A DNA stretch of 64,000 nt from Sphingomonas sp. (GCA_035776635.1 DASTWI010000020.1:3483-67482), one strand, 5' to 3'; positions 29,535 through 55,938 are shown, counted from the first letter of the stretch. Translations and numbers: made by a program. Notes: generated from the letters alone by a model not told the origin.

Positions 29535-30160
29535 GCCGCGGCCGCTTCATCTCGCTCGAGGGCGGGGAGGGGGCCGGCAAGTCCACGCAGGCGACACGGC
29601 TGGCCGAGGCGCTGGCCGCACGCGGCATCGAGACGCTGGTGACGCGCGAGCCCGGCGGCAGCGAGGGCGCCGAGGCGATCCGGTCGCTCCTCATGCAGGG
29701 AGCCGTGACGCGGTGGAGCGCGCATAGCGAGGCGCTGCTGTTCGCCGCGGCGCGCGCGGATCATGTCGAAAAGCGCATCAGCCCCGCGCTCGGCGCCGGC
29801 CTGTGGGTGATCTCCGATCGCTTTATCGATTCGAGCCGCGCCTATCAGGGCCTCGCCGGCGGGATCGACGACGCCGCGATCCTCGCGCTGCACGGCTTCG
29901 GCTCGCGCGGCCTGCTCCCCGACCGCACCTTCGTCCTCGAAGTGCCGCACGACGAGGGCGCGGCGCGCGCGACCGGGCGCGACGGCGCCGCCGCCGACCG
30001 CTTCGCCGCGCGGGGGGAGGGGTTCCACGCCGACGTCGCCGCAGCCTTCCGCCGCTTCGCCGCCGACGAGCCCGACCGCATCCGCCTGATCGACGCAACC
30101 GGCACGCCCGAGGCCGTCACCATGCGCCTGCTCACCGGCCTCGCCGACCTGCTGCCATGA
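29531..30160 (+). CDS. tmk: Thymidylate kinase
   Basis: FISLEGGEGAGKST, TREPGG and DRFIDSSRAYQG motifs. Confidence 0.96.
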   Translation: MSRGRFISLEGGEGAGKSTQATRLAEALAARGIETLVTREPGGSEGAEAIRSLLMQGAVTRWSAHSEALLFAAARADHVEKRISPALGAGLWVISDRFIDSSRAYQGLAGGIDDAAILALHGFGSRGLLPDRTFVLEVPHDEGAARATGRDGAAADRFAARGEGFHADVAAAFRRFAADEPDRIRLIDATGTPEAVTMRLLTGLADLLP

Positions 30161-31227
30161 CGCCACTCGTCGGCAACGCCCGCGCGCAGCAGACCTTTCT
30201 CGCCGCGATGCATAGCGGCGCGCTCCACCACGCCTGGCTGTTCGCCGGCCCGCAAGGCGTGGGGAAGGGCGCCTTCGCCCGCTTGGCGGCGATGCGGATG
30301 CTGGCGGAAGCCGCCGGCGATCTCCCCCCTTCGTCACCCCGGCCCCCGAGCCGGGGTGAGGCTTCTTCTTTTTCTTTAGAGGAAGAAGGCAGCCCAACCC
30401 CGGGTCAAGCCCGGGGTGACGAGGTAGGAACTCTCGAAGTCCCCGAAGGCACCCGAACCCGCTCCCTCATCGAAGCCGGCTCACACCCCGATTACCGCGT
30501 GCTCGGGCGCTTGCCCAAGGATCCCGACAAGCCCGGCGAGGATCTCGCCCGCTCGATCCCGATCGCGCAGGTCCGCAGCCTGCAGCCGCTGTTCGCGACC
30601 ACGCCGTCGCTGTCGCCGCGCCGCGTCGTCATCATCGACGCGATCGACGACCTCGAGCGCGCCGCCGCCAATGCGCTCCTTAAGAACCTCGAGGAGCCGC
30701 CCGCCGGCACCATCTTCCTGCTCGTCAGCCACGCGCCCGGCCGCCTGCTGCCGACGATCCGCTCGCGCTGCCGTATCCTGCGCTTCGAGCCGCTGCCGGC
30801 GGACGTGCTGGCCGACGAGCTCGCCCGCCGCCTGCCCGACGCCCCGCGCGAGGAGATCGCCGCGGTCGTCGCCAGCGCCAAGGGCTCGCTCGGCCGCGCG
30901 CTCGATTTCGCCGGCCTCGACATCTCCGGCCTCGAAAAGGCGCTGCACACCATCGCGGCCACCGGCGACCCGACCAACGCCGAACGCTCTGCCCTCGCGA
31001 AGAGCCTCGCCCTCAAGGCCCAGCAACACCGCTACGAAGCCTTCCTCGACCGCGCCCCCGCCTTCATCGCCGAAGCCGCAACGACGCGGGCAGGGGAGGC
31101 CCTGCGCACCGCCCTCGACGCCCACGAAGCCGCCCGCGCGCTGGCGGCAAGCGCCCGCGGCCTGTCGCTCGACCAGCGGGCGAGCGTGTATGAGATGGCG
31201 GGGCTGGTGGCGCGGTTGAGCCGCTAG
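30157..31227 (+). CDS. holB: DNA polymerase III subunit delta-prime with an in-frame repeat-derived insertion
   Basis: HHAWLFAGPQGVGK, GSHPD, NALLKNLEEPP, LLPTIRSRC; lies between tmk and metG. Confidence 0.93.
   Translation: MTPLVGNARAQQTFLAAMHSGALHHAWLFAGPQGVGKGAFARLAAMRMLAEAAGDLPPSSPRPPSRGEASSFSLEEEGSPTPGQARGDEVGTLEVPEGTRTRSLIEAGSHPDYRVLGRLPKDPDKPGEDLARSIPIAQVRSLQPLFATTPSLSPRRVVIIDAIDDLERAAANALLKNLEEPPAGTIFLLVSHAPGRLLPTIRSRCRILRFEPLPADVLADELARRLPDAPREEIAAVVASAKGSLGRALDFAGLDISGLEKALHTIAATGDPTNAERSALAKSLALKAQQHRYEAFLDRAPAFIAEAATTRAGEALRTALDAHEAARALAASARGLSLDQRASVYEMAGLVARLSR
30331..30422. repeat. 92-bp palindromic element (TCGTCACCCCGG...CCGGGGTGACGA) inside holB
   Basis: 12-bp perfect terminal inverted repeats, two GC hairpins and an AT-rich centre. 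Confidence 0.85.
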
Positions 31228-31230
31228 AGC

Positions 31231-31611
31231 TTAGCGCCAGTCATCAGTGTAATCTCGGACTGGGTTGAGACGCTCGGTTAGGCGAGCAATCCCATTTTGT
31301 AGGTCATATGACTGACTTTGGAGCTGCTGAACCTGCTGTTCCAGCAATTGAGCACGCCGTTCAGTAATTAGTGCGAAGGTATGTGTCTCGAATAAAGCTT
31401 TTTCGGTGGACCACTGAATGACACCGGACAAACTGAAAATTACTATGGCTAATGCGACGTGAGAACCTGTCATGCCAAACCAGATGAGGCATGGAAGGAA
31501 CGGTAGTCCGGAAAACAGAGAGGCTCTGCGCACCCATTTCCGGTCTTCTTTGCGGTCCCTAATGATGGCGCTAGCGTTGATGTCGCCGTCGACTGACCCC
31601 CACTCGTCCAT
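31231..31611 (-). CDS. Low-GC hypothetical protein (two hydrophobic segments, C-terminal coiled coil)
   Basis: 126-aa ORF filling the gap between holB and metG; GGAG ribosome-binding site; 25/60 GC at 31381-31440. Confidence 0.65.
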   Translation of the reverse strand: MDEWGSVDGDINASAIIRDRKEDRKWVRRASLFSGLPFLPCLIWFGMTGSHVALAIVIFSLSGVIQWSTEKALFETHTFALITERRAQLLEQQVQQLQSQSYDLQNGIARLTERLNPVRDYTDDWR

Positions 31612-31742
31612 GCTTCATCTCCATATCGGGTTCCCGGTCTAGTGGGAGCTTGGTTTCTATCCCGTTAGCTCGGCATATTGCATTTAGAATGTTCTCGTCT
31701 CGTCCCCTTTGCCCCCGCCCATCAATCGGCTAACAGCCGCGC

Positions 31743-33302
31743 ATGGCCGAGCCCTATTACATCACCACCGCGATCAATTATCCCAATGGCCGCCCGCATA
31801 TCGGCCATGCCTATGAGGCGATCGCCGCCGACGCGATCGCGCGCTTTCACCGCCAGGCGGGGCGTGACGTGCGCTTCCAGACCGGCACCGACGAGCACGG
31901 CCTCAAGATGGTCCAGACCGCGCGCGCCCGCGGCGTCGAGGTGCGCGCGCTCGCCGACGAAATGTCGGGATATTTTCAGGAGATGGCGGCGAAACTGAAC
32001 ATCTTGTACGATCGCTTCATCCGCACCGTCGAGCCCGATCACCACGCCGCCAGCCGGGCGCTGTGGAAAGCGATGGAGGTCGCCGGCGACCTTTATCTCG
32101 ATCGCTACGAGGGCTGGTATTCGGTTCGCGACGAGGCGTTCTACGATGAGAAGGAACTGGTCGACGGGGAAGGGGGCAAGCTCTCGCCCAACGGCACGCC
32201 GGTCGAATGGACCGCCGAGGAAACCTGGTTCTTCGGCCTCTCGAAATACCAGCAGAAGCTGCTCGACCATTACGCCGCCCACCCCGAGTTCATCCAGCCC
32301 GAGAGCCGCCGCAACGAGATCCTCCGCTTCGTCGAGGGCGGCCTGTCGGACCTCTCGGTCTCGCGCACCAGCTTCGATTGGGGCGTCAAGGTGCCGGGCA
32401 GCGACGGCCACGTCATGTACGTCTGGGTCGATGCGCTGACCAATTACATCACCGGCCTCGGCTATCCCGATACGAGCGGCGATTTCGCGCGCTGGTGGCC
32501 CGCCGACCTCCATTTGATCGGCAAGGACATCGTCCGCTTCCACAGCGTCTATTGGCCCGCGTTCCTGATGTCGGCGGGGCTGGCGCTGCCCAAGGCAGTC
32601 TTCGGCCACGGCTTCGTCCTCAACCGCGGCGAGAAGATGTCGAAATCGACCGGCAACATCGTCGATCCGATCGAGCTCGCCGACCGCTTCGGCGTCGATG
32701 CGCTGCGCTATTTCCTGTTGCGCGACATCAGCTTCGGGCAGGATGGCAGCTTCTCGGCCGAAGCGATTGTAACACGAGCCAATTCCGATCTCGCCAACAG
32801 CTTCGGCAATCTCGCCCAGCGCACGCTGACGCAGATCTTCAAGAATCTCGGCGGCGGCCTGCCCGAAATCCACGGCCACAACGACGCCGACAACGCGCTG
32901 TTCGATGTGGTTTGCAAGGCCGTGGAGACAACCATCCCGCAAGCCTATGCCGATCTCGCGCTCAGCCAGGCGACCGAGGCGTGGGTGCAGGCGGTGTTCG
33001 CGTGCAACGCCTATATCGACGAGCAGGCGCCCTGGGCGCTGCGCAAGACCGACCCCGAGCGGATGGAGACGGTGCTGGCGACGCTCTATATTGCGATCGC
33101 GATGTTGGCCGTGGCGATCCGCCCGGTGATCCCGGCGAGCGCCGACACGCTGCTCGATACGATGGGCGTCGCGCCGGAACTGCGCAGTTTCGAGGGCATC
33201 GTCAGCCACTGGTATTCGCCGCTCGCCGAAAGCGACTTCACGCTCGCCCAGCCGACGCCGCTGTTCCCGCGGCTCGAACTGCCCGAGGAGGCCGCCGCCT
33301 GA
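31743..33302 (+). CDS. metG: Methionine--tRNA ligase (short form)
   Basis: YPNGRPHIGH, TGTDEHG, YVWVDAL and KMSKS motifs. Confidence 0.97.
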   Translation: MAEPYYITTAINYPNGRPHIGHAYEAIAADAIARFHRQAGRDVRFQTGTDEHGLKMVQTARARGVEVRALADEMSGYFQEMAAKLNILYDRFIRTVEPDHHAASRALWKAMEVAGDLYLDRYEGWYSVRDEAFYDEKELVDGEGGKLSPNGTPVEWTAEETWFFGLSKYQQKLLDHYAAHPEFIQPESRRNEILRFVEGGLSDLSVSRTSFDWGVKVPGSDGHVMYVWVDALTNYITGLGYPDTSGDFARWWPADLHLIGKDIVRFHSVYWPAFLMSAGLALPKAVFGHGFVLNRGEKMSKSTGNIVDPIELADRFGVDALRYFLLRDISFGQDGSFSAEAIVTRANSDLANSFGNLAQRTLTQIFKNLGGGLPEIHGHNDADNALFDVVCKAVETTIPQAYADLALSQATEAWVQAVFACNAYIDEQAPWALRKTDPERMETVLATLYIAIAMLAVAIRPVIPASADTLLDTMGVAPELRSFEGIVSHWYSPLAESDFTLAQPTPLFPRLELPEEAAA

Positions 33303-34081
33303 TGCTTGCCGACAGCCATTGCCATCTCAATTACAAAGGGTTGGCTGAAGAACAGCAAGCGGTGCTCGAACGCGCCCGGGCCCGCGGCGTGACGGCGATG
33401 CTCAACATCTCGACCCGCGAGAGCGAGTGGAACGACGTCCTCGCCACCGCGACGCGCGAGCCCGACGTGTGGGCCACCGTCGGCATTCACCCGCACGAGG
33501 CCGACCAGCATCCGCATGTCGATACCGCCAAGCTCGTCGAACGCGCGCGGCACCCGCGCGTCGTCGGCATCGGCGAAAGCGGGCTCGATTATTATTACGA
33601 CCATAGCGACCGCGCCCGCCAGCAGGCGAGCTTCCGCGCGCACATCGCCGCCGCGCGCGAGACCGGCCTGCCGCTCGTCGTCCACACTCGCGACGCCGAG
33701 GAAGACACCGCCGCGATCCTCAGCGACGAAATGGGGAAGGGGGCCTATCCGGGCGTCATCCACTGTTTCACCGCGAGCCAGGCGTTCGCCGACATCGCGC
33801 TCGATCTCGGCTTCTACATCTCGATCTCGGGCATCGTCACGTTCAAGAACGCCAAGGACCTGCAGGCGACCGCGGCCCAGCTCCCGATCGAGCGCCTGTT
33901 GATCGAGACCGACGCGCCCTTCCTCGCGCCCGTGCCGCATCGCGGCAAGACCGGCGAGCCGAGCTTCGTCGCCGACACCGCGGCGTTCCTCGCCGATCTC
34001 CGCGGCGAAGAAGTCGAGCAACTGAAGGACGTTACGGCGCGAAACTTCCACGCGCTCTTCGCCAAAACGGCGGCTGCGTGA
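33302..34081 (+). CDS. tatD: TatD family hydrolase
   Basis: DSHCH, GIHPH, IGESGLDY, VHTR and IETDAPFLAP motifs. Confidence 0.95.
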   Translation: MLADSHCHLNYKGLAEEQQAVLERARARGVTAMLNISTRESEWNDVLATATREPDVWATVGIHPHEADQHPHVDTAKLVERARHPRVVGIGESGLDYYYDHSDRARQQASFRAHIAAARETGLPLVVHTRDAEEDTAAILSDEMGKGAYPGVIHCFTASQAFADIALDLGFYISISGIVTFKNAKDLQATAAQLPIERLLIETDAPFLAPVPHRGKTGEPSFVADTAAFLADLRGEEVEQLKDVTARNFHALFAKTAAA

Positions 34082-34842
34082 AGGTCCGCATCCTCGGCTC
34101 GGGAACCTCGTCGGGGGTGCCGCGGATCGGCAACGATTGGGGCGCGTGCGATCCGAACGAGCCGCGGAACCGCCGCACCCGCGTGTCGATCCTGGTCGAG
34201 ACCGCGACGACGCGCATCCTGGTCGACACCACTCCCGACATGCGCGAGCAGCTGCTTGCGGCCAACGTCTCGGACGTCGATGCGGTCATCTGGACCCACG
34301 ACCATGCCGACCATTGCCACGGCATCGACGACCTTCGCCAAATCTATCACCTGCGCGGCGCCCCGGTGCGCGGCTTCGCCCGGCCAGACACGCTGGCGGC
34401 GCTGGTCGAGCGCTTCGCTTATGTCTTCAACGGCCGCGACGGCTATCCTTCTAGCGTCGCCGCCGAACCGCTGCCGGATATGCTGACGATCGGCGATATC
34501 CGTCTGCGTGTCGTCGATCAGCCGCACGGATCGATCACCAGCGCCGGCCTGCGCTTCGAGTCGAGTGGAAAGACGGTCGGTTATGCAACCGATTTCAGCG
34601 ACATGACCGACGATATGAAGGCGTTGTATCAAGGTTGCGACCTGTGGATCGCCGATGCGCTGCGCCGCCGCCCGCATCCGACCCATTCCACGCTCGAAGA
34701 CGTGCTCGGCTGGGCCGGGGAGCTCGCGGTCGGCCATAGCGTGCTGATCCACATGGACAATTCGATGGATTACCGGACTCTCGCGGCCGAACTGCCGCCG
34801 CGGGTCGAGCCCGGCTATGACGGACTGGAACTGGTGCCGTGA
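34078..34842 (+). CDS. MBL-fold metallohydrolase (PhnP-like)
   Basis: LGSGTSSGVP and THDHADHCHG motifs. Confidence 0.92.
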   Translation: MKVRILGSGTSSGVPRIGNDWGACDPNEPRNRRTRVSILVETATTRILVDTTPDMREQLLAANVSDVDAVIWTHDHADHCHGIDDLRQIYHLRGAPVRGFARPDTLAALVERFAYVFNGRDGYPSSVAAEPLPDMLTIGDIRLRVVDQPHGSITSAGLRFESSGKTVGYATDFSDMTDDMKALYQGCDLWIADALRRRPHPTHSTLEDVLGWAGELAVGHSVLIHMDNSMDYRTLAAELPPRVEPGYDGLELVP

Positions 34843-35459
34843 ACGACACCGGCGCCAACGCCTTGTTCCTGGCGCTGCTGCTGATCCTGCCGCTGTCGTC
34901 GTTGCTCGCACGCCGGCTGCCGCTGCGCAGCGTCGTCAAGATGACGCTCGCCTGGATCGCGATCTTCGCCGTGGCGCTGGTCGTCATCGCCGGACGGCAC
35001 CAACTCGCCGCCGGCTGGTCGGCGATCACGCGGACGATCATCGGCGACGACCAGAGCGTCACCGGCGGCACGGTGCGGATCGGCAAGGCCGACGACGGCC
35101 ATTTCTGGGCGACCGCGACGATCAATGGGGTCCGGCGGCGGATGCTGATCGACAGTGGCGCGACCTATACCGCGATTTCCAGCGGCACCGCTGCAGCCGC
35201 GCAGCTCGATCTCGGCGAAAGCCCGTTCGGATCGATCCTGTCGACTGCCAACGGCGACATCGCGGTTACGCGCGCGACGGTCGGCACGCTCGAGGTCGGC
35301 TCGATCACCACGCACGACCTGCCGGTGGTCGTCTCGCCGGCGTTCGGCGACACCGACGTGCTCGGCATGAACTTCCTGTCGCGCTTGGAAAGCTGGCGCG
35401 TCGAGGGGGACACGCTGATTCTCCAACCGGCCCCGGGCAGCGGAGTTAATTTAACATAA
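34839..35459 (+). CDS. Membrane-anchored retropepsin-like (clan AA, TIGR02281-type) aspartyl protease
   Basis: Two TM helices, DGHFW, LIDSGAT, VLGMNFL. The last codons overlap the dif site. Confidence 0.88.
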   Translation: MNDTGANALFLALLLILPLSSLLARRLPLRSVVKMTLAWIAIFAVALVVIAGRHQLAAGWSAITRTIIGDDQSVTGGTVRIGKADDGHFWATATINGVRRRMLIDSGATYTAISSGTAAAAQLDLGESPFGSILSTANGDIAVTRATVGTLEVGSITTHDLPVVVSPAFGDTDVLGMNFLSRLESWRVEGDTLILQPAPGSGVNLT

Positions 35460-35476
35460 TGTATATTATCGGACTT
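35449..35476 (-). other. dif site (XerC/XerD chromosome dimer resolution site)
   Basis: Minus strand reads AAGTCCGATAA-TATACA-TTATGTTAAAT. The right arm is identical to the E. coli XerD arm TTATGTTAAAT; 11-6-11 geometry. Confidence 0.92.
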
Positions 35477-35484
35477 TGTGTGAG

Positions 35485-36261
35485 ATGAATCCGGAGCCCC
35501 CCTGCCGCCCGATCGATCGCCTTCTGGCCGTCATGGCGCGGCTGCGCGATCCGATGCGCGGCTGCGAATGGGACACGGTCCAGACCTTCGCGACGATCGC
35601 GCCGTACACGATCGAAGAAGCTTATGAGGTCGCCGACGCGATCCAGCGTGACGACATGGCCGAGCTCAAGGATGAGCTCGGCGATCTGCTGCTCCAGGTC
35701 GTGTTCCACGCCCGCATGGCCGAGGAATCGGGGCTGTTCGGCTTCGACGACGTCGCCACCGCGATCGCCGACAAGATGGAGCGCCGCCACCCGCACATCT
35801 TCGGCGATCGCGCCGAGGGCGGCCATCATCTGTGGGAGCAGATCAAGGCCGAGGAGCGCGCCGCCAGGGGCAAGCCGGACGCGCCGACAAGCGCGCTCGA
35901 CGGCGTCGCGCTCGGCCTGCCGGCGCTGCTCCGCGCCGAAAAGCTCCAGAAGCGCGCCGCGCACACCGGCTTCGACTGGCCCGACCCATCCGGCGCGCGC
36001 GCCAAGATCGACGAAGAGCTCGCCGAAGTGGAGACCGCCGCCACCGCAGCCGAACGCGAGGAGGAAATCGGCGACCTGCTGTTCGCCGTGGTCAACTGGG
36101 CGCGCAAGCTCGGCATCGATCCCGAAGCCGCGCTGCGCGCCGCCAACACCAAATTCGAACGCCGCTTCCGCGCGATGGAGCAGACTGCCGGCGACGCTTT
36201 CGCCGCGCTCGACCTCGACGCCAAGGAGGCGCTGTGGGTCAGCGCGAAGAAGGGCGGATAG
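35485..36261 (+). CDS. mazG: Nucleoside triphosphate pyrophosphohydrolase MazG
   Basis: LRDP..GCEWD, IEEAYEV, ELGDLLLQVVFH and EEIGDLLF motifs. Confidence 0.95.
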   Translation: MNPEPPCRPIDRLLAVMARLRDPMRGCEWDTVQTFATIAPYTIEEAYEVADAIQRDDMAELKDELGDLLLQVVFHARMAEESGLFGFDDVATAIADKMERRHPHIFGDRAEGGHHLWEQIKAEERAARGKPDAPTSALDGVALGLPALLRAEKLQKRAAHTGFDWPDPSGARAKIDEELAEVETAATAAEREEEIGDLLFAVVNWARKLGIDPEAALRAANTKFERRFRAMEQTAGDAFAALDLDAKEALWVSAKKGG

Positions 36262-36273
36262 AACAGAGCTTCC

Positions 36274-36350
36274 GTGCTCCTGCGAAAGCAGGAGCCCAGG
36301 GAACAAGCGGCGTTCCCCGAGATTCTGGGCTCCTGCTTTCGCAGGAGCAC
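36274..36350. repeat. REP-like doublet, family A, between convergent mazG and hflX (likely bidirectional terminator/stabiliser)
   Basis: Perfect 26-bp inverted arms GTGCTCCTGCGAAAGCAGGAGCCCAG. Confidence 0.85.
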
Positions 36351-36371
36351 CGTTTTCATCAAAACATCGGG

Positions 36372-37670
36372 CTACGACCCCGCAAACCGGGTCGCGAAGC
36401 GCTCGTAATCCGCGGGCGCCATCCGCACTTCGTAGACCGTCCGGTCGCCCTCGACCTCCTGCTCCAGCACTGCGCCATGCTGGTGCAGCCATGCCGCGCC
36501 GGCGCCGTCGGCGGGGTCGAGCGCGATGCGATAGCGGCGGTGGCCGGCGGTGAGCTTCGCCGCGACCTGGTCAAGCAGGCGATCGACCCCCTCCCCGGTC
36601 AGCGCCGACACCGCGACGACGTCATCGCGCCGCGCGGCTTCGGCGATCACCTCGGCGCGCCGCTCGGGTTCGAGCAGGTCGAGCTTGTTCCACGCCTCGA
36701 TCCGCGGCGTGGTCTCCTCGACGCCGATCTCGCCGAGCACCGCCTCGACATCGGCGCGCTGCGCCTCGCTGTCGGGATGCGCGATGTCGCGGACGTGGAT
36801 CAGGAGGTCGGCCGAGACCACCTCCTCCAGCGTCGCCTTGAACGCGGCGACGAGCTGGGTCGGCAGCTCGGAGACGAACCCCACCGTGTCGGACAGGATC
36901 GCCTTGTCGATGCCGGGCAGCGAAATCTGCCGCAGCGTCGGGTCGAGTGTTGCGAACAGCAAATCTTCCGCCATGACGTCGGCGCCGGTCAAGCGGTTGA
37001 ACAGCGTCGATTTTCCGGCATTGGTATAGCCGACCAGCGCGATTACCGGCCACGGCGCGCGCTGCCGCCGCTCGCGGTGCAGCCCGCGCGTGCGCTTGAC
37101 CTGGTCGAGTTCGCGCCTCAGCCGCGCCATGCGGTCGCGGATCAGCCGGCGGTCGGCCTCGATCTGCGTCTCGCCGGGGCCGCCGAGAAAGCCGAAGCCG
37201 CCGCGCTGGCGTTCAAGGTGCGTCCAGCTCCGTACCAGCCGCCCCGCCTGATAGTCGAGGTGCGCGAGCTCGACCTGCAGCCGCCCCTCGGCGGTCGCGG
37301 CGCGTTCGCCGAAGATCTCGAGGATCAGTCCGGTGCGGTCGATCACCTTGGCTTCGAGCGCGGTTTCGAGGTTGCGCTGCTGCACCGGCGTCAGCGCGGC
37401 GTCGAATACGACCAGCCCCGCCTCCTCCATCCGCACGTTGGCGGCGAGCGCCTCGACCTGGCCCGAGCCGATCAGCGTCGCCGGCTTGGGATTGCGCACG
37501 CGGAGCGCGACGGTGTCGGCGACGACCACGCCGATCGCCGCGGCCAGCCCGGCGGTCTCCTCGAGCCGCGCGTCGGCGTCGCGGCGCGACTCGCCCTGGT
37601 CGGGATAGACGACGATCGCGCGAGCGCCGCGCGCGAATTCGCCGCGGTCGCGTTCGAACCCTGTGCTCAA
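36372..37670 (-). CDS. hflX: GTPase HflX
   Basis: [36 protein letters not shown] and NKLD motifs. Confidence 0.97.
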
Positions 37671-38158
37671 TCCGCGTCCGAACCCGCTGTTTCGTCAGCC
37701 AGATTCAGCGGATGCGCCGGCTGGATCGTCGATACCGCATGCTTGTAGACCAGTTGCGACAGTCCTTCGCGCTGCAGCAGCATACAAAACAGGTCGAACG
37801 CGGCGATCTGGCCCTGCAGCATTACCCCGTTGACCAGGAACATGGTGACGTTGTCGTCCGACTTGCGCACCGCATTCAGGAAGATTTCCTGGAGCAGCGG
37901 CTGTTTCTTGCCCGGCTCGCCCATCTGGTCGACGATCGGACTGACGTCGATCGACCCCGACGGCATGATCGTCGAGATCGCGTGCTTGTAGATCAGCTGC
38001 GACTGCCCGTCGCGGCGCAGCAGCACCGAGAAATTGTCGAACCAGGTGACGATTCCCTGCAATTTCACGCCCTTGACGAGGAACATCGTCACCGGCGTCT
38101 TCGATTTGCGCAGCGCATTGAGGAACAGGTCCTGGAGCGAGGTCTGCTTGTCGGCCAT
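37667..38158 (-). CDS. hfq: RNA chaperone Hfq with two tandem Sm domains
   Basis: LQDLFLN...IYKHAISTI followed by LQEIFLN...VYKHAVSTI; 163 aa; directly upstream of hflX. Confidence 0.96.
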
Positions 38159-38319
38159 GCGTGATAACCTTGTTCTTGGCGGGTCATGAGCCCGCATTGC
38201 GCCGGTTCCCGGCGTCGGAAGGGCGCGCATCGTGCGCGCACGCCAGCAATTTAGGGCTGAAGGGGGCCGGCGTCCATATGGCGTTAGCGCGTAGGGGCTA
38301 TTCGTTCGCGCACGTCCCT

Positions 38320-38388
38320 CCGTTCGCCCTGAGCGTGTCGAAGGCGATTTCCCCCGCGCATCGCTTCGACTTCGCTCAGCACGAACGG
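38320..38388. repeat. REP-like element, family B
   Basis: CCGTTCGCCCTGAGCGTGTCGAAG...CTTCGACTTCGCTCAGCACGAACGG. Confidence 0.8.
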
Positions 38389-38404
38389 AGTATTGCGAAA
38401 GCCC

Positions 38405-39781: not shown

Positions 39782-39784
39782 GGG

Positions 39785-45660: not shown

Positions 45661-45840
45661 TCGCTCGCCCTGAGCCTGTCGAAGGGCGTTTCAACCCTTT
45701 CGGCAGGGTGGCGACCCCGTTGGGTTTGGGTTAAGGCGCGAGCCCCTATCCCCTCCGTTCGCCCTGAGCTTGTCGAAGGGCGGTTCTTGGCTTTGGCAAT
45801 GGAGCTCGCAATCGTGCTTCGACAGGCTCAGCACGAACGG
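45661..45840. repeat. Family B repeat cluster (one half-unit plus one full element)
   Basis: TCGCTCGCCCTGAGCCTGTCGAAGGG at 45661; full element at 45755-45840. Confidence 0.78.
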
Positions 45841-45848
45841 CTGTGGAA

Positions 45849-47512: not shown

Positions 47513-47517
47513 CCGTC

Positions 47518-48033: not shown

Positions 48034-48455
48034 AGCGCCGCCGCGCGCGCCTCGAACGCGCCGATCATCTTCCTCAGCGCGCGATCGAACACCTGCCCCG
48101 CCAGCATCTCGAACACGCGGTTGCGGAACGCGAAATCGACCGCGAAGTCGACGCAGCACCCGCCCTCCCCGTCGGGCCGGAACCGCCAGTCGTTGTGGAG
48201 GTATTTGAGCGGCCCCTCGACATAATCGACGTGGATTTCCTCCGGCCGCCGCTTTTCGACTCGCGAGGTGAAGGTCTCGCGCAGCCCCTTGAACCCGACG
48301 ATCATGTCGGCGACCATCTGCATGTCGCTGTCCGAGCGCACGCGGATCGCGCTGACCCACGGCAGGAATTCGCCATAGCGCCCGACGTCGGCGACCAGAT
48401 CGTACATCTGCTCGGGGCTATAGGGCAGGCGGCGCGTTTCGTGATGCTTGGGCAT
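47979..48455 (-). CDS. START/SRPBCC-fold RatA/Coq10-like protein
   Basis: YSPEQMYDLVADV..Y.EFLPW and FTSRV motifs; follows lipA. Confidence 0.9.
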   Translation of the reverse strand: MPKHHETRRLPYSPEQMYDLVADVGRYGEFLPWVSAIRVRSDSDMQMVADMIVGFKGLRETFTSRVEKRRPEEIHVDYVEGPLKYLHNDWRFRPDGEGGCCVDFAVDFAFRNRVFEMLAGQVFDRALRKMIGAFEARAAALYGSPAEGISKSSAHSAA

Positions 48456-48459
48456 GGGC

Positions 48460-49389
48460 TCAGCCGCGCGCCAGCTTCGCCTCGCGATTGGCGCGCATCC
48501 GCTCGAAATCGTCGCCGGCGTGATAGCTCGACCGCGTCAGCGGCGACGAGGCGACCAGCAGGAACCCCTTGGCGCGCGCGATCCCCGCATAGGCGTCGAA
48601 CGCTTGCGGGGTCACGAACTCCATCACCTTGGCGTGGCGCGGCGTCGGCTGCAGATACTGCCCCATCGTCAGGAAATCGACGTCGGCCGAGCGCATGTCG
48701 TCCATCACCTGATGGACCTCGAGCCGCTCCTCGCCGAGCCCGAGCATCACCCCCGACTTGGTGAAGATCGACGGATCGTGCTTCTTGACGCTCTCCAGCA
48801 GCCGCAGCGACGCATAATAGCGCGCGCCCGGCCGAATCGTCGGATAGAGCCGCGGCACCGTCTCCAGATTGTGATTATAGACGTCGGGCCGCGCCGCGAC
48901 GATCGCCTCGACCGCCGCCTCGGCCTTGTTGCGGAAATCGGGCGTCAGGATCTCGATCGTGGTGTCCGGCGCCGCCGCGCGCAGCGCCTGGATCACCTTG
49001 ACGAACTGGCCCGCCCCGCCGTCGGGCAGGTCGTCGCGATCGACCGAGGTGACGACGATATGGCTCAGCCCCATCTGCACCGCGACCTCGGCGACATGCG
49101 CGGGTTCCAGCGGATCGACCGCACGGGGCATCCCCGTCTTGACGTTGCAGAAGGCGCACGCCCGCGTGCAGGTGTCGCCCAGGATCATCACCGTCGCGTG
49201 CTTCTTGGTCCAGCATTCGCCGATGTTCGGACACGCCGCTTCCTCGCACACCGTCGCGAGGTTCTTCTCGCGCATCAGCTTGCGCGTTTCGGCGAAGCCG
49301 ACGCTGGTCGGCGCCTTGACCCGGATCCAGTCGGGCTTGCGTTGACGCGGAGGGCGCGCGAGGGGGGACATCTCGTTCATGCCGGCCAT
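48460..49389 (-). CDS. lipA: Lipoyl synthase
   Basis: [20 protein letters not shown] and RSSY motifs. Start may be 49389, 49380 or 49371. Confidence 0.97.
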
Positions 49390-49445
49390 CTAGCGACTGT
49401 CGCGGTGGCTTGCCACCCCTGACCGTAGCTGCAAAGGATGCATGC

Positions 49446-50075
49446 ATGGCTGACTTTTCCGACCTCGTCCGCGGATATCACCGCTTCCGTGACCGCGATT
49501 ACACGCGCCAGCACGCGCGCTGGATGGAGCTCGCCGAAGGGCAGAGCCCGCGCGTCATGGTGATCGCCTGCGCCGACAGCCGCACCGACCCGGCTTTGGT
49601 GTTCGACGCCGCGCCGGGCGAGATCTTCGTCGTCCGCAACATCGCCGCGCTCGTCCCCCCGTTCGAGCAGGGCGGCGGCCGCCACGGCGTCTCGGCGGCG
49701 ATCGAGTTCGCGGTCAACCAGCTCGAAGTGCCCGAGATCGTCATCATGGGCCACGGCTCGTGCGGCGGCGTCAACGCGGCGCTGACGCAGAGCTTCGCCG
49801 GCTGCGCGAATGGCGAGGGCGGCTTCCTCGGCCATTGGGTCGATTTGCTCGACGCCGCGCGCGACCGCATCGTCGCCGAGCACGGCGCCGGCCCCGAAGC
49901 GACCCGCGAGCTGGAGCTGGAGACCGTCCGCGTCTCGCTCACCAACCTGCGCACCTTTCCCCGCGTTGCCGAGCGCGAAGCCGCCGGCAAGCTCACCCTG
50001 CGCGGCGCCTATTTCGCGATCCGCGACGGCGTGCTGTGGGTGATGGGCGAAGACGGCCAGTTCGCCCCGGCCTGA
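49446..50075 (+). CDS. Beta-class carbonic anhydrase
   Basis: IACADSR, VRNIA and GHGSCGG motifs. Confidence 0.94.
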   Translation: MADFSDLVRGYHRFRDRDYTRQHARWMELAEGQSPRVMVIACADSRTDPALVFDAAPGEIFVVRNIAALVPPFEQGGGRHGVSAAIEFAVNQLEVPEIVIMGHGSCGGVNAALTQSFAGCANGEGGFLGHWVDLLDAARDRIVAEHGAGPEATRELELETVRVSLTNLRTFPRVAEREAAGKLTLRGAYFAIRDGVLWVMGEDGQFAPA

Positions 50076-50103
50076 AGGTCGCTCACCACCGAACTGCAAT
50101 CCC

Positions 50104-50127
50104 GTGCTCCTGCGAAAGCAGGAGCAC
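50104..50127. repeat. Single family A REP hairpin
   Basis: GTGCTCCTGC-GAAA-GCAGGAGCAC perfect stem between convergent genes. Confidence 0.8.
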
Positions 50128-50140
50128 ACGCTCCTCGCGG

Positions 50141-50629
50141 TCACCCCTGCTTCTCGATCACCGTGATCCGCCCGCTCGGCTCCAGCGTCACCTGCTTGAC
50201 CTTGCTCATGTCGGCGATCCCCGACCGCCGCAGCGCTTCGTCGAAGTCGGTCAGCGACACCGAATGCCGCTTGCGCATCGCCTGATCGATCCGCCCGTCA
50301 TGCGCGAGGTCGATCGAGCGCCCCTCCAGCACCCGCGCGACGCCCTGCCACCGCGCCGCCGCATTGGCGAGCAGCCCGTGCAGCGCGACGAAGATCACCG
50401 ACGCCGCCAGTGTTCCCATCAGCGGCGCGCTGCCGGTCAGCGCCCGGCTGAGGCTCGATCCGACGATGATCGACACGACGATGTCGAGCGCCGCCCATTT
50501 CCCGAACACCCGCCGCCCCGCCAGCCGCACCAGCACCAGCCCGAACGCGAAGATCAGCACCGCCCGCGCGCATTCCTGCCCGAAGCTGAGGTTATGCTGT
50601 TGCCCGAAGATCGCCTGCAGCGTTTCCAT
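50141..50629 (-). CDS. DUF421/YetF-like membrane protein
   Basis: Three TM helices, GRRVFGKWAALD, LEPSGRITV. Confidence 0.85.
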   Translation of the reverse strand: METLQAIFGQQHNLSFGQECARAVLIFAFGLVLVRLAGRRVFGKWAALDIVVSIIVGSSLSRALTGSAPLMGTLAASVIFVALHGLLANAAARWQGVARVLEGRSIDLAHDGRIDQAMRKRHSVSLTDFDEALRRSGIADMSKVKQVTLEPSGRITVIEKQG

Positions 50630-50703
50630 ACCGCAACAACCCGCGGAAGCGGGCGGCGTTCCCGCTGCCAGTCACGCTCGCCGCGATACAGAACGATCAT
50701 CAA

Positions 50704-50837
50704 CCGTTCGTGCTGAGTAGAGGCCGAGTAGCTGCGAAGCAGCGTATCGAGGCCTCGTATCGAAGCACTCCTATGTCCTTCGATACGCAGCCTCGATACG
50801 CCCTTCGGGCTACTCGGCAGCTACTCAGGACGAACGG
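50704..50837. repeat. Long family B-related palindromic element
   Basis: CCGTTCGTGCTGAGTAG...CTACTCAGGACGAACGG with internal CGAGTAGC/GCTACTCG and CGTATCGA/TCGATACG inverted repeats. Confidence 0.8.
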
Positions 50838-50844
50838 AAGGCCC

Positions 50845-52668
50845 TCACCCTGCGTGCGGCGCCACGATCGCGTCCACGTCGGTCTTCGCCGTCTTGACCG
50901 GCTCGATCACCCGAACGCTCAGCTCGCGCAGCTGCTTCAGGCTTGCCGGCGAGGGCGCGCCCATCAGCAAGTCCTCGGCGCGCTGGTTCATCGGGAACAG
51001 CGTGATCTCGCGCAAATTCTGCGCCCCGCACAGCAGCATGACGATGCGATCGACCCCCGCCGCCATTCCGCCGTGCGGCGGCGCGCCGTACTGGAACGCG
51101 CGATAGAGCCCGCCGAACCGCTCCTCGACGTCGGCCTTGCTGAGGCCCACCAGCTCGAAAGCCTTGACCATCGTCTCGGGCGACTGGTTGCGGATCGAGC
51201 CCGAGGCGATCTCGTAACCGTTACACACCATGTCGTATTGGAACGCCTTGATTCCCAGCGGGTCCTCGCCGTTCAGCGCCTCCAGCCCGCCCTGCGGCAT
51301 CGAGAACGGATTGTGCGCGAAGTCGAGCTTCTTCTCGTCCTCGTCATATTCGTAGAACGGGAAATCGACGATCCAGCACAATTCGAACCGGTCCTTGTCG
51401 ATCAGGTCGAGCTGCTCGCCGACCCGCACGCGCGCCAGCCCCGCCAGCTTGGCCGCCTGCGCTTCCTTGCCGGCGGCAAAGAACACGCCGTCGTTCGGCC
51501 CGAGCCCGAGCGCCGCGATCAGCTTCGCGGTCGCCTCGGGCCCGTGGTTCTTGGCGATCGGCCCGCCCGGCTCGCCGTCCTTGATGTTGATATAGCCGAG
51601 CCCCGAATAGCCTTCCGAGCGCGCCCAGTTGTTCATGTCGTCGAAGAACTTGCGGCTCCCGGCCCCCGCGCCCGGCGCCGGGATCGCGCGGATCACCCCG
51701 CCGCCCGCGACGATATTGGCGAAGATGCCAAAGCCGCTCCCGTGGAAATGATCGGTCACGTCGGTGATGATGATGGGGTTGCGCAGGTCCGGCTTGTCCG
51801 ACCCGTATTTGAGCATCGCCTCGCTGAACGGAATCCGCGGAAAGCTCCCCGCCGGCGTGACGTGCTTACCCTCGGCGAAGTCCTCGAACACCCCGGCGAT
51901 CACCGGCTCCATCGTGTTCCACACGTCTTCTTGGCGAACGAAGCTCATTTCGAGATCGAGCTGGTAGAACTCGCCCGGCAGGCGGTCGGCGCGCGGGTCC
52001 TCGTCGCGGAAGCATGGCGCGATCTGGAAATAGCGGTCGAAGCCGGCGACCATCAGCAGCTGCTTGTATTGCTGCGGCGCCTGCGGCAGCGCGTAGAACT
52101 TGCCGGCGTGGATGCGGCTCGGCACCAGGAAGTCGCGCGCGCCCTCGGGGCTCGACGCGGTGAGGATCGGCGTCGAATATTCGGTGAACCCGGCGGCCTC
52201 CATCCGCCGCCGCATGTCCGAGATGACCTTGGTCCGCTTGACGATATTGGCGTGCAGCGTCTCGCGCCTGAGGTCGAGGAACCGATACCGCAGCCGCACG
52301 TCCTCGGGATAATCCTGCTCGCCCGCGACCGGCAGCGGCAGCTCGGCGGCCTCGGACAGCACCACCGCCTCGAGCACGCGAATCTCGATCTCGCCCGTGG
52401 GCAGGTTCGGATTGATCGCCTCGCCCGCGCGCTTCTCGACCACGCCGGTGATCGTCACCACGCTCTCGGCGCGCAGCCGCTCGATCACCGGAAACGCCGG
52501 CCCGTCCACCTCGGTGACGACCTGCACCATCCCGTAATGGTCGCGCAGATCGACGAACACCAGGTCGCCATGGTCGCGCTTGCGATGGACCCAGCCCGAG
52601 ACGCGCACCGTCTCTCCGGCATTCGCGGCGCGCAGCTCGCCGCAGGTGTGGGTGCGATAGGCGTGCAT
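50845..52668 (-). CDS. aspS: Aspartate--tRNA ligase (probably the non-discriminating Asp/Asn type)
   Basis: [29 protein letters not shown] and PPHGG motifs. The His in RDHG is typical of the non-discriminating type. Confidence 0.97.
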
Positions 52669-52768
52669 GGTCGATCGTCTCGCTTCGTCGATGACGGTTG
52701 GAAAGGTGGCCGCGCTTCCCTTGCAACAGGCGCTTTGTCAACCCGCGCGTCATCGCTAAAGAGCCGCG

Positions 52769-53941
52769 ATGCACATCCACGACCTGATCGAAGACTCGGC
52801 GACCCTCGCCAATCTCTGCACCCGCCTTTCCGACTCGGCGTTCGTCTGCGTCGATACCGAGTTCATGCGCGAGAACAGCTACTGGCCCGAGCTCTGCCTG
52901 ATCCAGATCGCCGACGCGAACGAGGCCGCGGCGATCGACCCGATGGCCCCCGGTATCGACCTGACGCCCCTCCTCGACCTCCTCACGAAGAACGAGGACG
53001 TGCTCAAGGTCTTCCACGCCGGCGGCCAGGACCTCGAGATCATCTACAACCTCACCGGCACCACGCCGCACCCGCTGTTCGACACGCAGATCGCCGCGAT
53101 GGCGCTCGGCCAGGGCGAGCAGGTCGGCTACGGCAATCTGGTCGATGCCTGGCTCGGGATCACCGTCGACAAGGGCGCGCGCTTCACCGACTGGTCGCGC
53201 CGCCCGCTCGACACGCGCCAGATCGACTATGCCATCGCCGACGTCACGCATCTGGCGGCAATTTTCCCCAAGATGCTGCAACGCCTCAAGAAAACGGGCC
53301 GCGGCGCGTGGCTCGACCAGGAGATGGAGCGCCTCGCCGATCCCGCCAACTACGCCAACGACCCCGATTTGGCATGGAAGCGCGTCCGTATCCCCGGTCG
53401 CAAGCCCGAGGTGCTCGGCCGGTTGAAGGCGCTCGCCCGCTGGCGCGAGCTCGAGGCGCGGGGCAAGAACCTCCCCCGCGGCCGCATCATGAAGGACGAG
53501 ACGCTCGCCGACCTCGCCGGCTCGCCGCCGAAGAAGCAGGCCGATCTGTCGCGTGTCCGCGGCCTCTCCGGCGCCTGGGCGTCGAACGACATCGGCGCCC
53601 GCCTGATGGCCGCGCTCGCCGATGCGGGGCCCCTCCCCGCCGCCGAGATGCCCGCGCGCGACGACCGCAAGCCCGGCCTCGGCAAGGAAGGCGCGCTGGT
53701 CGCCGACCTCCTCAAGCTCCTCCTCAAGATTCGCGCGCGGGAGATCGATGTCGCGCCGAAACTCCTCGCCCGCAGCGACGACCTCGAAGCGCTCGCCGCC
53801 GGCCGCCGCGACGGCCTGTCTATCCTCGAAGGCTGGCGCTACGAGCAGTTCGGCCACGACGCGCTCGACCTCGTCGAAGGCCGCCTCGGCTTCGCGGTCA
53901 GGAACGGCAAGCTCAAGATGAGCCGAACGGAGGACGCATGA
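52769..53941 (+). CDS. rnd: Ribonuclease D
   Basis: VDTEFMRE, FHAGGQD, LFDTQIAA, YAIADV motifs and an HRDC domain. Confidence 0.96.
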   Translation: MHIHDLIEDSATLANLCTRLSDSAFVCVDTEFMRENSYWPELCLIQIADANEAAAIDPMAPGIDLTPLLDLLTKNEDVLKVFHAGGQDLEIIYNLTGTTPHPLFDTQIAAMALGQGEQVGYGNLVDAWLGITVDKGARFTDWSRRPLDTRQIDYAIADVTHLAAIFPKMLQRLKKTGRGAWLDQEMERLADPANYANDPDLAWKRVRIPGRKPEVLGRLKALARWRELEARGKNLPRGRIMKDETLADLAGSPPKKQADLSRVRGLSGAWASNDIGARLMAALADAGPLPAAEMPARDDRKPGLGKEGALVADLLKLLLKIRAREIDVAPKLLARSDDLEALAAGRRDGLSILEGWRYEQFGHDALDLVEGRLGFAVRNGKLKMSRTEDA

Positions 53942-54297
53942 AGTCGAATCCTGCAGCCGTTCGGGCTGAGCCTGTCGAAGCCCGGTTCCGCCGATCGCCC
54001 TTCGACACGCTCAGGGCGAACGGAGCGCTGGGACTGGGATTGTTCCTCGCCGCCTGCGCCGCCGCGCAACCGCCCCTCGCCCACGGCAGCGGCGCCATCT
54101 GCAAGGCGGACGGCCTATCGGATCTCGTCGGCCGGCCCGCCACCGCCGACCTCGGCGCCGCGGCGCTCAAGCGCTCCGGCGCGCGCACGCTGCGCTGGAT
54201 CCAGCCCGGCATGGCGGTGACGATGGACTATCGCCAGGACCGGCTCGACGTGCATCTCGACGCGCGCAACGTCGTCACCAAGCTGAGCTGCGGCTGA
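53938..54297 (+). CDS. I78 family peptidase-inhibitor-like lipoprotein with a repeat-derived signal-peptide extension
   Basis: GGAGGA ribosome-binding site, ATGA coupling to rnd, lipobox LAAC, MAVTMDYRQDRLDV...CG C-terminus. Confidence 0.85.
   Translation: MKSNPAAVRAEPVEARFRRSPFDTLRANGALGLGLFLAACAAAQPPLAHGSGAICKADGLSDLVGRPATADLGAAALKRSGARTLRWIQPGMAVTMDYRQDRLDVHLDARNVVTKLSCG
53957..54023. repeat. Family B element inside the I78 gene
   Basis: CCGTTCGGGCTGAGCCTGTCGAAG...CTTCGACACGCTCAGGGCGAACGG. Confidence 0.85.
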
Positions 54298-54303
54298 AAC
54301 CAG

Positions 54304-54376
54304 TATTCCTGCGAAAGCAGGAATCCAGGATCGCAAGCGCACCGCTCATCATCTGGGCTCCTGCTTTCGCAGGAGC
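54304..54376. repeat. Family A REP doublet between convergent I78 gene and ppx
   Basis: TATTCCTGCGAAAGCAGGAATCCAG...CTGGGCTCCTGCTTTCGCAGGAGC. Confidence 0.82.
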
Positions 54377-54384
54377 CCGGTGGC

Positions 54385-55938
54385 TCACCCCACCACCATC
54401 CGCGCCTCGCCGCCGAGCGCCGCGGCGAGCGCCTTGTGCCGCCGCTCGACCGTCTCGCCGTACAGCGCCGCATCGCTCCCCGCGAGCGTCAGCGTCACCG
54501 CCCCGCCCTCGCGCCCCAGCCGCGCGCGCTCCAGCGGCCCCGCGACCCCGCCGCTCAGCCGCTGCCCCAGCCGGACCGCCAGCCCCCACGCCGCCGCTCG
54601 CCTGAGCTCACGCTCGCCGGCCAGCCTGCCCAGCGGCTCGGGCGACTTCGCGCCACCGCCCAGCCCGGTGAACAGCGCCTGCGCCACCAGGGCCCGCCCG
54701 CGCGCGTCGATCGCCACCCAGTCGCCGTGCAACGCAACATCGAGCCCGCGCTCGGCGCGGAACTCGGGATTGGCATGCCATCCCACGTCGGCGAGCAGGC
54801 ACGCCGCATGTCTCAGCCGCGCCAGCTCCGGCGCATCCTCCCCGAATAGCGGCGCGATCCAGCGATCGAGCAAATCGCCATGCTCGGCGAACCGCCCCAG
54901 CCGCCGCCCCTCGTCGCGCGTCGCGACGATCAGCGGGTCCTCGCCCCGCGTCGCCTCGTCGAGCGCGCCGTAGAGCAGCCCCTCGCGCAAGCCGTAAGCC
55001 GACACCAATGTCGTCGCGCATCCCAGCTGCCGCAGCACCACGCCAAGCAGCGCCGCAGCATCGCCCAGCGTCGGAATCCGCGCGGCCGACAGATCGGGCA
55101 CCTCGCGCAGCCGCGCCTTGTCGAGATGCGCCAGCGCGCGCCCCAGCCGCGTCACCGTCGCCGCCGGCATCGAATAGGCGTGGACGATCGGCAGCGGATA
55201 GCCGGTCAGGTGCATGTCAAGCCGCGCCAGCGAGCGCCACGACCCGCCGACCAGGTAGAAGGGCCGCCCCGCTCCGCTCCCCGCCCAGCCGGTCTTCGCG
55301 AGCACCGTTGCGACATGCCGTTCGAGCGCGCCCTTGCCGCGCGCGCGGATCGCCGCGATCCTCAGCACGCCGAGCGGAAACGACGCCCGCTCGCCGACCG
55401 CACCGCCCGCAACGCGCACCAGCTCCAGGCTGCCGCCGCCGAGGTCGCCGACGATTCCCTCGGCCTCCGGAATCCCCGACAGCACGCCCCGCCCGGCCGC
55501 CAGCGCTTCCTCGTCCCCCGACAGCAGCGCGACGTCGAGCCCAAGGCCGCGCGCATGGTCGATCAGCTCGTGCCCGTTGGCCGCCTCGCGCACCGCGGCG
55601 GTGGCGACGGTGCTGAGCTCGGTGACGTCCATCTCGCGCGCGATCGCCGCGAACCGCGCCAGCGCTCCTTGCGCGCGCGCCATTGCCGCGGCGTCGATCG
55701 CGCCCTTCACCGCCAGCTCGCGGCCGAGCCCGGCCATCACCTTCTCGTTGAACAGGATCGAGGGCAGCCGCTTGGGTCCCTGATAGACGACGAGACGGAT
55801 CGAGTTCGATCCGATGTCGATGATCGCGGTGCGCGGGTGCGCCGCCGCCCGATGCTCCTGCGCAAGCAGGAGCCCGGGACCACCGGCCCGAACCTCGCCT
55901 TGGGCCCCTGCTTGCGCAGGAGCACGCGCCCCCGTCAT
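54385..55938 (-). CDS. ppx: Ppx/GppA exopolyphosphatase with a repeat-derived N-terminal segment
   Basis: IIDIGSNSIRL, ATAAVREA, DLGGGSLE and GLREG motifs; downstream of ppk. Confidence 0.93.
   Translation of the reverse strand: MTGARAPAQAGAQGEVRAGGPGLLLAQEHRAAAHPRTAIIDIGSNSIRLVVYQGPKRLPSILFNEKVMAGLGRELAVKGAIDAAAMARAQGALARFAAIAREMDVTELSTVATAAVREAANGHELIDHARGLGLDVALLSGDEEALAAGRGVLSGIPEAEGIVGDLGGGSLELVRVAGGAVGERASFPLGVLRIAAIRARGKGALERHVATVLAKTGWAGSGAGRPFYLVGGSWRSLARLDMHLTGYPLPIVHAYSMPAATVTRLGRALAHLDKARLREVPDLSAARIPTLGDAAALLGVVLRQLGCATTLVSAYGLREGLLYGALDEATRGEDPLIVATRDEGRRLGRFAEHGDLLDRWIAPLFGEDAPELARLRHAACLLADVGWHANPEFRAERGLDVALHGDWVAIDARGRALVAQALFTGLGGGAKSPEPLGRLAGERELRRAAAWGLAVRLGQRLSGGVAGPLERARLGREGGAVTLTLAGSDAALYGETVERRHKALAAALGGEARMVVG
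55854..55925. repeat. Family A REP doublet inside the ppx 5' coding region
   Basis: GCTCCTGCGCAAGCAGGAGCCC...GGGCCCCTGCTTGCGCAGGAGCAC; 72 bp. Confidence 0.85.

Follow-up and report, generated by a model that had tools for sequence, protein, structure and literature searches.

Palindromic repeats of three families lie in frame within holB, ppx and other conserved genes of a Sphingomonas genome

Dispersed palindromic repeats lie in frame inside three protein-coding genes, holB, an I78-family lipoprotein gene and ppx, in a 64,000-nt stretch of Sphingomonas sp. DNA (GCA_035776635.1, DASTWI010000020.1, here contig C20:3483-67482), hereafter the window. Judging from the sequences of these and other conserved genes of the same genome, the elements are very probably read by the ribosome, and the proteins would carry repeat-encoded peptides. 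A repeat search of the window brings out two dispersed palindromic families, A and B, and the holB element seeds a third, C. A preliminary description of the window had placed palindromic elements inside the three genes and had assigned those of the I78 gene and ppx to families that also occur between genes. Profile searches bear out both points: nhmmer, with iterated profiles built from window copies and the whole genome as search space, places a family C element in holB (E 4e-17), a family B element in the I78 gene (E 7e-15) and a family A element in ppx (E 3e-10), and four loci of family A and four of family B are intergenic in the window.

The host assembly is a 71-contig draft of 3.74 Mb with 67% GC. 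A HolB search names as its closest public relatives the Sphingomonas metagenome-assembled genomes (MAGs) bin725 (91% identity), bin130 and bin723 and S. koreensis S11.1Y (87%), with Hephaestia mangrovi and the MAG bin680 next. Because these are the closest relatives named by the search, the source genome is assigned on sequence similarity to the S. koreensis group.

Elements inside holB, an I78 lipoprotein gene and ppx

The holB gene (30157..31227, plus strand; 356 aa) encodes the delta' subunit of DNA polymerase III (NCBIfam NF005677, E 2.5e-63). Its family C element (30330..30422, plus strand) corresponds to residues 59-91 and translates as SSPRPPSRGEASSFSLEEEGSPTPGQARGDEVG. The element is a dimer of CGTC-tagged stem-loops with the layout TTCGTC-ACCCCGGC...GCCGGGGT // ACCCCGGG...CCCGGGGT-GACGA and an AT-rich centre, and its RNA is predicted to fold at -67 kcal/mol (z -8.8). 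HolB of 22 species of the same genus reads ...MLAEAA-(5-8 residues)-VPE..RT..L..AGSHPDY and has no insert, whereas HolB here has 33 extra residues (SSPRPP...GDEVG), with the junction sequences ...AAGDLPPSSPR and GDEVGTLEVPEGTR. The same insert occupies the same codon in four relatives, bin725, bin130, bin723 and S. koreensis S11.1Y, and has been passed on in frame across five genomes; the site is empty in H. mangrovi and bin680. A further 48 nt are nested in frame at the centre of the bin723 insert, and one hairpin of the bin725 insert has undergone a compensatory G-C to A-T change, CCGGGTCAAGCCCGG to CCGGATCAAGTCCGG, which keeps the pairing.

The inserted segment falls between aligned positions 44 and 66 of E. 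coli delta', which we take to be the zinc-module region. In an AlphaFold model based on 34 orthologues (mean predicted local distance difference test score, pLDDT, 85; predicted template modelling score 0.75), residues 60-90 are coil with a pLDDT of 31-38, compared with about 90 elsewhere, and the insertion site is a surface loop. holB is essential, and the genome contains no other strong delta' match; unless the insert were translated the cell would have no delta', and so it must be.

The gene for the I78 peptidase-inhibitor family lipoprotein (53938..54297, plus strand; 119 aa; Pfam PF11720 at residues 55-119, E 5e-14) starts with an ATG that overlaps the stop codon of the upstream gene (ATGA) and is preceded by a GGAGGA ribosome-binding site, both of which are conserved in relatives. 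The family B element (53956..54025, plus strand; residues 7-29) consists of two stem-loop arms with a predicted RNA fold of -39.5 kcal/mol. While the signal peptides of the relatives' proteins have 13-20 residues, for example MIRLLPVLALLGAC in bin725, 40 residues precede the lipobox Cys here, the n-region of this signal peptide having grown by about 26 aa. All genus relatives examined lack the element, as do bin725, S. koreensis S11.1Y, bin723 and H. mangrovi. In the closest relative the upstream gene is nearly identical in DNA sequence, yet the element is absent, and the insertion is therefore recent.

The third host gene, ppx (54385..55938, minus strand; 517 aa; NCBIfam TIGR03706 at residues 37-326), encodes exopolyphosphatase and follows ppk in the same operon. 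Its ATG is located 14 nt past the ppk stop codon behind a GGAGA site, and in relatives the start lies 9-30 nt past that stop. The N-terminal tail of the relatives' Ppx has 17-19 residues, M(A/V)TLLFRKPR (e.g. MATLLFRKPR...) plus about 8 residues, followed by PRTAIIDIGSNS; in Ppx here, 34 residues come before PRT, and about 16 aa have been gained in this tail. The family A element (55853..55925, minus strand; approximately residues 5-29), a head-to-head dimer of the CGTC-1 type described below, translates as RAPAQAGAQGEVRAGGPGLLLAQEH and has a predicted RNA fold of -59.7 kcal/mol (z -6.1). It is not at this site in 15 congeners or in 5 of 6 close relatives, and four or five of the six close relatives retain the plain ancestral form. 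In bin725 (C14:46300-48700, locus at about 2075-2200, minus strand), a different CGTC-type repetitive extragenic palindromic (REP) dimer (...CATGCCAGCGAAGGCTGGCATCG...CCCCAGCCTTCGCTGGGGTGACG) is located at the 5' end of ppx. Repeats have thus reached the ppx site on two occasions, and the consequences differ.

In relatives, the native ppx gene begins with codons (GCTCCTGTTCCGCAAG, MATLLFRK) that are similar to one family A arm (GCTCCTGCTTTCGCAGGAGC), and the arms of the ppx copy carry an unusual loop, CGCAAG/CTTGCG. The dimer in ppx may be partly built on, or targeted to, pre-existing arm-like sequence.

Relatives lacking the repeats have shorter segments at all three sites, and this comparison with orthologues is decisive. 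No stop codon interrupts any of the three host frames within the element, as the preliminary description had said, which by itself is weak evidence because most frames of these repeats lack stops: on average 4.9 of the six frames are stop-free per copy in family A, 4.0 in family B and 2.8 in family C. The length of the copies modulo 3 is flat over all copies and gives no sign of an intrinsic in-frame bias in the families. The RNA folds of the three window elements (rounded, -67, -40 and -60 kcal/mol) are far below those of shuffled controls.

For the I78 gene and ppx, the elements could be structured 5' leaders, with translation beginning downstream and no repeat peptide made. We regard this as unlikely, although several observations weigh against translation through the elements. 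Many N-terminal REPs are really untranslated and call for caution, and this was the reading reached for most of those in Pseudomonas, Citrobacter and Stenotrophomonas (PMC3733652). The REP of bin725 lies outside the ppx frame: a TGA interrupts the ancestral frame, and a GTG in the tail of the repeat provides a new start and a short N-terminus. A family B dimer of our genome (8326-8404) in the open frame behind an upstream ATG of bioB (C59:7309-8424) was dropped from the count of in-frame copies; a GTG immediately downstream of the element agrees with where the orthologous proteins begin, and by this comparison the copy is probably a 5' leader and not coding. A crude codon-usage gene finder picks TTG 54040 as the start of the I78 gene. 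Moreover, gene calls outside the window come from a simple finder of our own and not from validated annotation, and the boundaries of the inserts are unclean, with sequence replaced as well as added, and no mechanism is readable from them.

The start codons and ribosome-binding sites point the other way. The preliminary description had stated that neither gene has an ATG or GTG between element and conserved core. In ppx the next in-frame ATG, GTG or TTG is at codons 67-68, beyond the essential DIGSNS motif. For the I78 gene the statement needs a correction: TTG 54040 is an in-frame start past the element, the only one, but a protein beginning there (MFLAAC) would have five residues before the lipobox Cys, too few for a lipoprotein signal when the relatives have 13-20. 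Both genes also retain the ancestral ATG with its ribosome-binding site, at an unchanged spacing from the upstream gene. From this gene structure and from conservation we infer that the ribosome passes through both elements.

Structure, copy number and gene context of the three families

Each element spans 70-95 nt and is built of two REP-type stem-loops arranged head to head. Iterated nhmmer profiles detect approximately 135 loci of family A, 305 of family B and 21-31 of family C genome-wide. Family A arms (GTGCTCCTGCGAAAGCAGGAGC) usually form inverted pairs about 30 nt apart, and 52 of 53 close pairs are arranged head-to-head (+/-). Their unit, GCTCCTGC-GAAA-GCAGGAGC, has a stem of 8 bp, a loop of 4 nt and a CCA-like tail. 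The ends of family A consist of CGTG followed by the stem and of a CCCA tail, and in most arms the stem starts GC...GC; the canonical AT...AT stem ATTCCTGC...GCAGGAAT with a CCA tail is found in only 7 of 95 arms. Family C (TTCGTCACCCCGG...CCGGGGTGACGA), head-to-head in 13 of 19 close pairs, has the unit CGTC-ACCCCGGC-loop-GCCGGGGT, in which an 8-bp stem encloses the 5-nt loop CTTGA (6 nt in the holB copy), and ends with a CGTC tag and a CCC tail. The arms of family B (CCGTTCGCCCTGAGCNTGTCGAAGGGC) are without a tag and have a 6-bp stem (CGCCCT/AGGGCG) and an 11-nt loop. This stem exists in three covarying versions, CC/GG (128 arms), TG/CA (50) and GG/CC (32), which points to maintenance of the hairpin. 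Family B dimers often mix two stem versions, and the arms can each fold singly, without full mutual complementarity.

Family A has expanded in this genome, which contains 180 arms against at most 27 in each of 40 relatives. Family B is patchy across the genus and is present also in four other genera of the order. The arms are conserved and the spacers drift, and few full-length copies have a partner at least 95% identical (5 of 122 in family A and 9 of 239 in family B). Intragenic and intergenic copies of the three families do not differ in degeneracy (Mann-Whitney p 0.15, 0.94 and 0.89).

In-frame copies were sought genome-wide with codon log-odds trained on 556 long open reading frames (ORFs) of high third-position GC, which called 3279 genes and 87% of the genome as coding. 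A copy was classed as intragenic when both 150-nt flanks scored as coding in one continuous open frame; the copies were then inspected and their hosts named by NCBIfam or Pfam, except for CcmF and a secreted protein, which were named by sequence reading only. At least 22 in-frame copies are located in 21 conserved genes, including the three window cases. The proposal that several repeat families supply new peptide sequence in this lineage thus gains at least 19 further in-frame copies in conserved genes. Outside the window, family A resides in the genes for DnaE, DnaE2, GcvPB, TsaC, CcmF and the secreted protein, where it lies just past the signal peptide, and family C in those for a second DnaE2 and IleS. 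Family B hosts are malate synthase G, an ImuB-like protein, MutS, CoaBC, PheT, a Uup-type ABC-F protein, RNase R, ValS (two sites), the biotin-carboxylase subunit of an acyl-CoA carboxylase and ParC. Seven of the hosts serve DNA replication or repair and six serve translation, a bias already remarked on for intragenic REPs (PMC3733652). Both genes of the imuB-dnaE2 mutagenesis cassette (C17:63397-68288) are affected, imuB by family B and dnaE2 by family A, and the dnaE2 with the family C insert (C42:20929-22464) is cut by a contig end.

The intragenic share is about 22 of 461 loci (approximately 5%), which in a genome that is about 87% coding indicates that insertions within genes are strongly depleted. 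The remaining loci are mostly between co-directional or convergent genes, and mostly downstream of genes. Around 45 further copies in ORFs that are open upstream of the predicted start were counted as intergenic unless shown otherwise, since these repeats usually have open frames, and a weak family B match (C41:50829; 33 nt, E 7e-4) is not among the 22. Also outside this number, an exact single family A arm of 27 nt (C18:140365-140391) is in frame (...CAPAKAGAQS...) in an ORF of 537 aa.

For 13 copies, the three in the window and ten others (DnaE, two in ValS, IleS, ParC, ImuB, RNase R, malate synthase G, GcvPB and PheT), the extra segment was demonstrated by explicit alignment to close relatives. 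The other copies were examined by searches with concatenated segments of 120-170 residues, in which the spans of query and target were compared or split adjacent matches were sought. By one or the other approach, the copies prove to be lacking in some or all of the relatives. The copies in DnaE, ImuB, RNase R, malate synthase G, I78 and Ppx are private to this genome. Others are common to some close relatives: those in IleS and MutS to bin725 and bin723, that in ParC to bin725 and S. koreensis, that at ValS site 2 to bin725 and bin130, and that in PheT to S. koreensis only. The copy in the carboxylase subunit is in all six close relatives and not in more distant congeners. This graded distribution, from private to clade-wide, suggests that gain has continued over time, with gains and losses inseparable in the patchy cases. 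The word 'ongoing' in the preliminary description is accordingly apt at the scale of species divergence, but no very recent bursts of whole dimers are evident, near-identical copies being few.

Some sites have been filled more than once. Site 1 of valS (C47:30409-33225) is occupied by a family B dimer in this genome and by longer repeat-like sequences, unrelated to it, in bin725, bin130 and S. koreensis S11.1Y, and the GcvPB site in bin725 holds another CGTC dimer. Several loops, ValS site 1 and those of GcvPB and CcmF (see below), are recurrent insertion hot spots. Target-site duplications were not visible at six filled-versus-empty sites, where local replacement has blurred the boundaries.

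Were the host genes inactivated copies or assembly artefacts, nothing functional would be made from them; a 71-contig draft with an estimated contamination of 4.2% invites this suspicion. We consider it very improbable. The sole strong delta' gene is among the hosts, with its insert in frame in four independent assemblies; every host frame runs unbroken for hundreds of codons, and coding statistics are normal to either side of the element; and the hosts include the single-copy essential DnaE, ValS, IleS, PheT and ParC.

Even less probable, to the point of being barely credible, is that the elements are removed after transcription or translation in the manner of introns or inteins, leaving mature proteins without them. 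The strong hairpins are the only feature that would fit such excision. An Rfam scan of the window found one tRNA only, and no family, including group I and group II introns, matches the elements. The elements are short at 70-95 nt and have no intein motifs, and the amino acids they encode drift in orthologues like ordinary coding sequence. Analogous elements of Rickettsia reportedly stay in the mRNA.

The distribution is very probably to be explained as follows. Copies insert at many places in the DNA, with about 95% of the survivors just outside genes and about 5% inside. A copy within a gene may survive if the net change in length preserves the reading frame, if no stop occurs in the translated frame, as is usual in these GC-rich palindromes, and if the site tolerates 15-35 extra, probably disordered residues. 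All three would have to apply together, and the HolB loop, the n-region of the I78 signal peptide and the N-terminal tail of Ppx fit this scheme. The ribosome would then read straight through, and the proteins would carry the repeat-encoded peptides. Both the tolerance of the proteins and the selective filter are deduced here from where the surviving copies lie. The process has been long-running in the S. koreensis clade, with different families repeatedly filling the same permissive loops across species.

Known systems and the search for a mobiliser

REPs with GTAG or CGTC tags have been described inside genes of several species (Di Nocera, De Gregorio & Rocco 2013, BMC Genomics 14:522; PMC3733652). 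Many of the hosts in that study are replication and repair genes, DnaE2 and tRNA synthetases, some of them in Sphingomonadales, and the CGTC repeats are without a dedicated transposase. Families A and C fit the CGTC-tagged REP superfamily, typical of alphaproteobacteria. As in CGTC-1, their 8-bp stems enclose loops of 4-6 nt and are followed by a short C-rich tail, they form head-to-head dimers and no dedicated transposase accompanies them. In both cases the hosts are alphaproteobacteria including Sphingomonadales, most copies lie downstream of genes, and the intragenic ones encode 20-30 aa, often in replication, repair or tRNA-synthetase genes. The peptides also match: APAKAGAQG and PAFAGA from family A frames and RHPG...RGD from family C correspond to the published VAPAQAGA, AAPAFAGAT and RHPGLDPGSR...GDRGD (dnaE2) of Sphingopyxis alaskensis, Sphingomonas wittichii and Erythrobacter litoralis (PMC3733652, Additional file 3).

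Differences from CGTC REPs remain, since most family A arms have CGTG and a GC...GC stem rather than CGTC (variants TGTC and CCTC) and AT...AT. Family B, with no tag, a 6-bp stem and an 11-nt loop, is an untagged REP-like family, and its peptides are absent from Additional file 3 of PMC3733652. As far as that catalogue is searchable, it contains neither holB, ppx and I78 as hosts nor the number of hits seen in this one free-living genome. New relative to the published picture are these host genes, the third, untagged family, the high count for a free-living bacterium and the dated series of gains. The contrast drawn in the preliminary description, between REPs as normally intergenic and Rickettsia elements as intragenic, stands insofar as about 95% of the loci here are intergenic, but it is less sharp than supposed, intragenic REPs of Sphingomonadales having been catalogued in 2013 (PMC3733652).

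Rickettsia was the first genus in which palindromes inserted in frame were reported (Ogata et al. 2000, as summarised in PMC10969869). According to that summary, the Rickettsia palindromic elements RPE-1 to RPE-10 are in-frame palindromes in numerous unrelated housekeeping genes, at sites compatible with the fold, and are inherited across species. The genome studied here likewise has in-frame palindromic repeats in conserved genes that are absent from orthologues. Unlike Rickettsia, the host is free-living with 67% GC and a 3.7-Mb genome, the elements measure 70-95 nt instead of about 100-150 nt, and about 5% are intragenic, compared with nearly half for some RPE families in the same summary. 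The one link in sequence is that RPE-4 and RPE-6 have been classed as CGTC-type (PMC3733652). That study also places a CGTC-1 unit at residues 26-33 of R. conorii CcmF. The family A insert of the CcmF-like protein here lies in the same protein region: in the gene (C52:135666-137666), the dimer (137496-137572) is in frame between the first two predicted membrane helices.

REPINs mobilised by REP-associated tyrosine transposases (RAYTs) resemble these elements as inverted doublets of short hairpins that number hundreds per genome and have conserved arms and variable spacers. They differ in that the consensus sequences of families A, B and C have no terminal GTAG and that no PF01797 protein accompanies them. 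Miniature inverted-repeat transposable elements, such as the intragenic enterobacterial repetitive intergenic consensus (ERIC; Delihas 2007, cited in PMC10969869), are, as that article presents them, also small non-autonomous palindromes capable of in-frame fusions. In contrast to these, no parent insertion sequence with matching ends was seen, the insertion sequences of this genome not having been catalogued, and whole-element copies are rarely near-identical. The elements here are palindromic end to end, and no longer arm-flanked element was found.

The absence of RAYTs noted earlier for the window extends further. Neither this genome nor any of 15 congeners, of which two are assembled in 1-2 contigs and carry the repeats, has a match to the Y1 transposases of the RAYT/IS200 type (PF01797); 25 relatives were searched overall, and control matches were obtained in E. 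coli, Caulobacter and four other genomes. Pairs of +/- arms 150-4000 bp apart number one in family A and three in family B, and no REPtron-like gene bracketed by inverted arms was found in the genome. These results indicate that the enzyme spreading the elements is not a RAYT.

A non-RAYT mechanism might still be making or inserting REP dimers in the S. koreensis clade, favouring REP-arm-like or hairpin-forming DNA over random insertion followed by selection. We offer this as a speculation and consider it unlikely. The hints are the arm-like native codons of ppx and the two REP families at that spot, the loops of GcvPB, ValS, PheT and CcmF filled by different families across species, the family A expansion and the compensatory changes in stems. 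If it were true, the long-missing mobiliser of CGTC-type REPs could be sought in this clade as a practical model.

Selfish palindromes that decorate essential proteins in frame would thus not be peculiar to reduced intracellular genomes: a free-living, GC-rich bacterium of soil and water has more than 20 such inserts, drawn from all three families, and several lie in replisome proteins or tRNA synthetases. For annotation, such inserts lengthen proteins, distort alignments and can mislead start calls, and ppx, the I78 gene and bioB each behave differently in this respect. The series of presences and absences, together with the expansion of family A in one species, provides a comparative handle on the mobilisation of CGTC-type REPs.

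Intergenic copies in the window

The intergenic copies in the window were located by repeat finding and nhmmer, without assignment of a strand. One family A dimer (54303..54376) lies between the convergent I78 and ppx genes. Another, at 36274..36350, is the best copy of this family in the window, that at 10344..10421 has the canonical ATTCCTGC...GCAGGAAT stem in one arm, and the fourth family A locus is at 60124-60171. Family B dimers are located at 45753..45841, the seed copy of the profile, at 22947..23019 and at 38318..38390, and two family B arms are found at 60329..60453. A weak match to the family B profile (50703-50838, E 1e-5) lies between predicted genes at 50141-50629 and 50845-52668, both on the minus strand.

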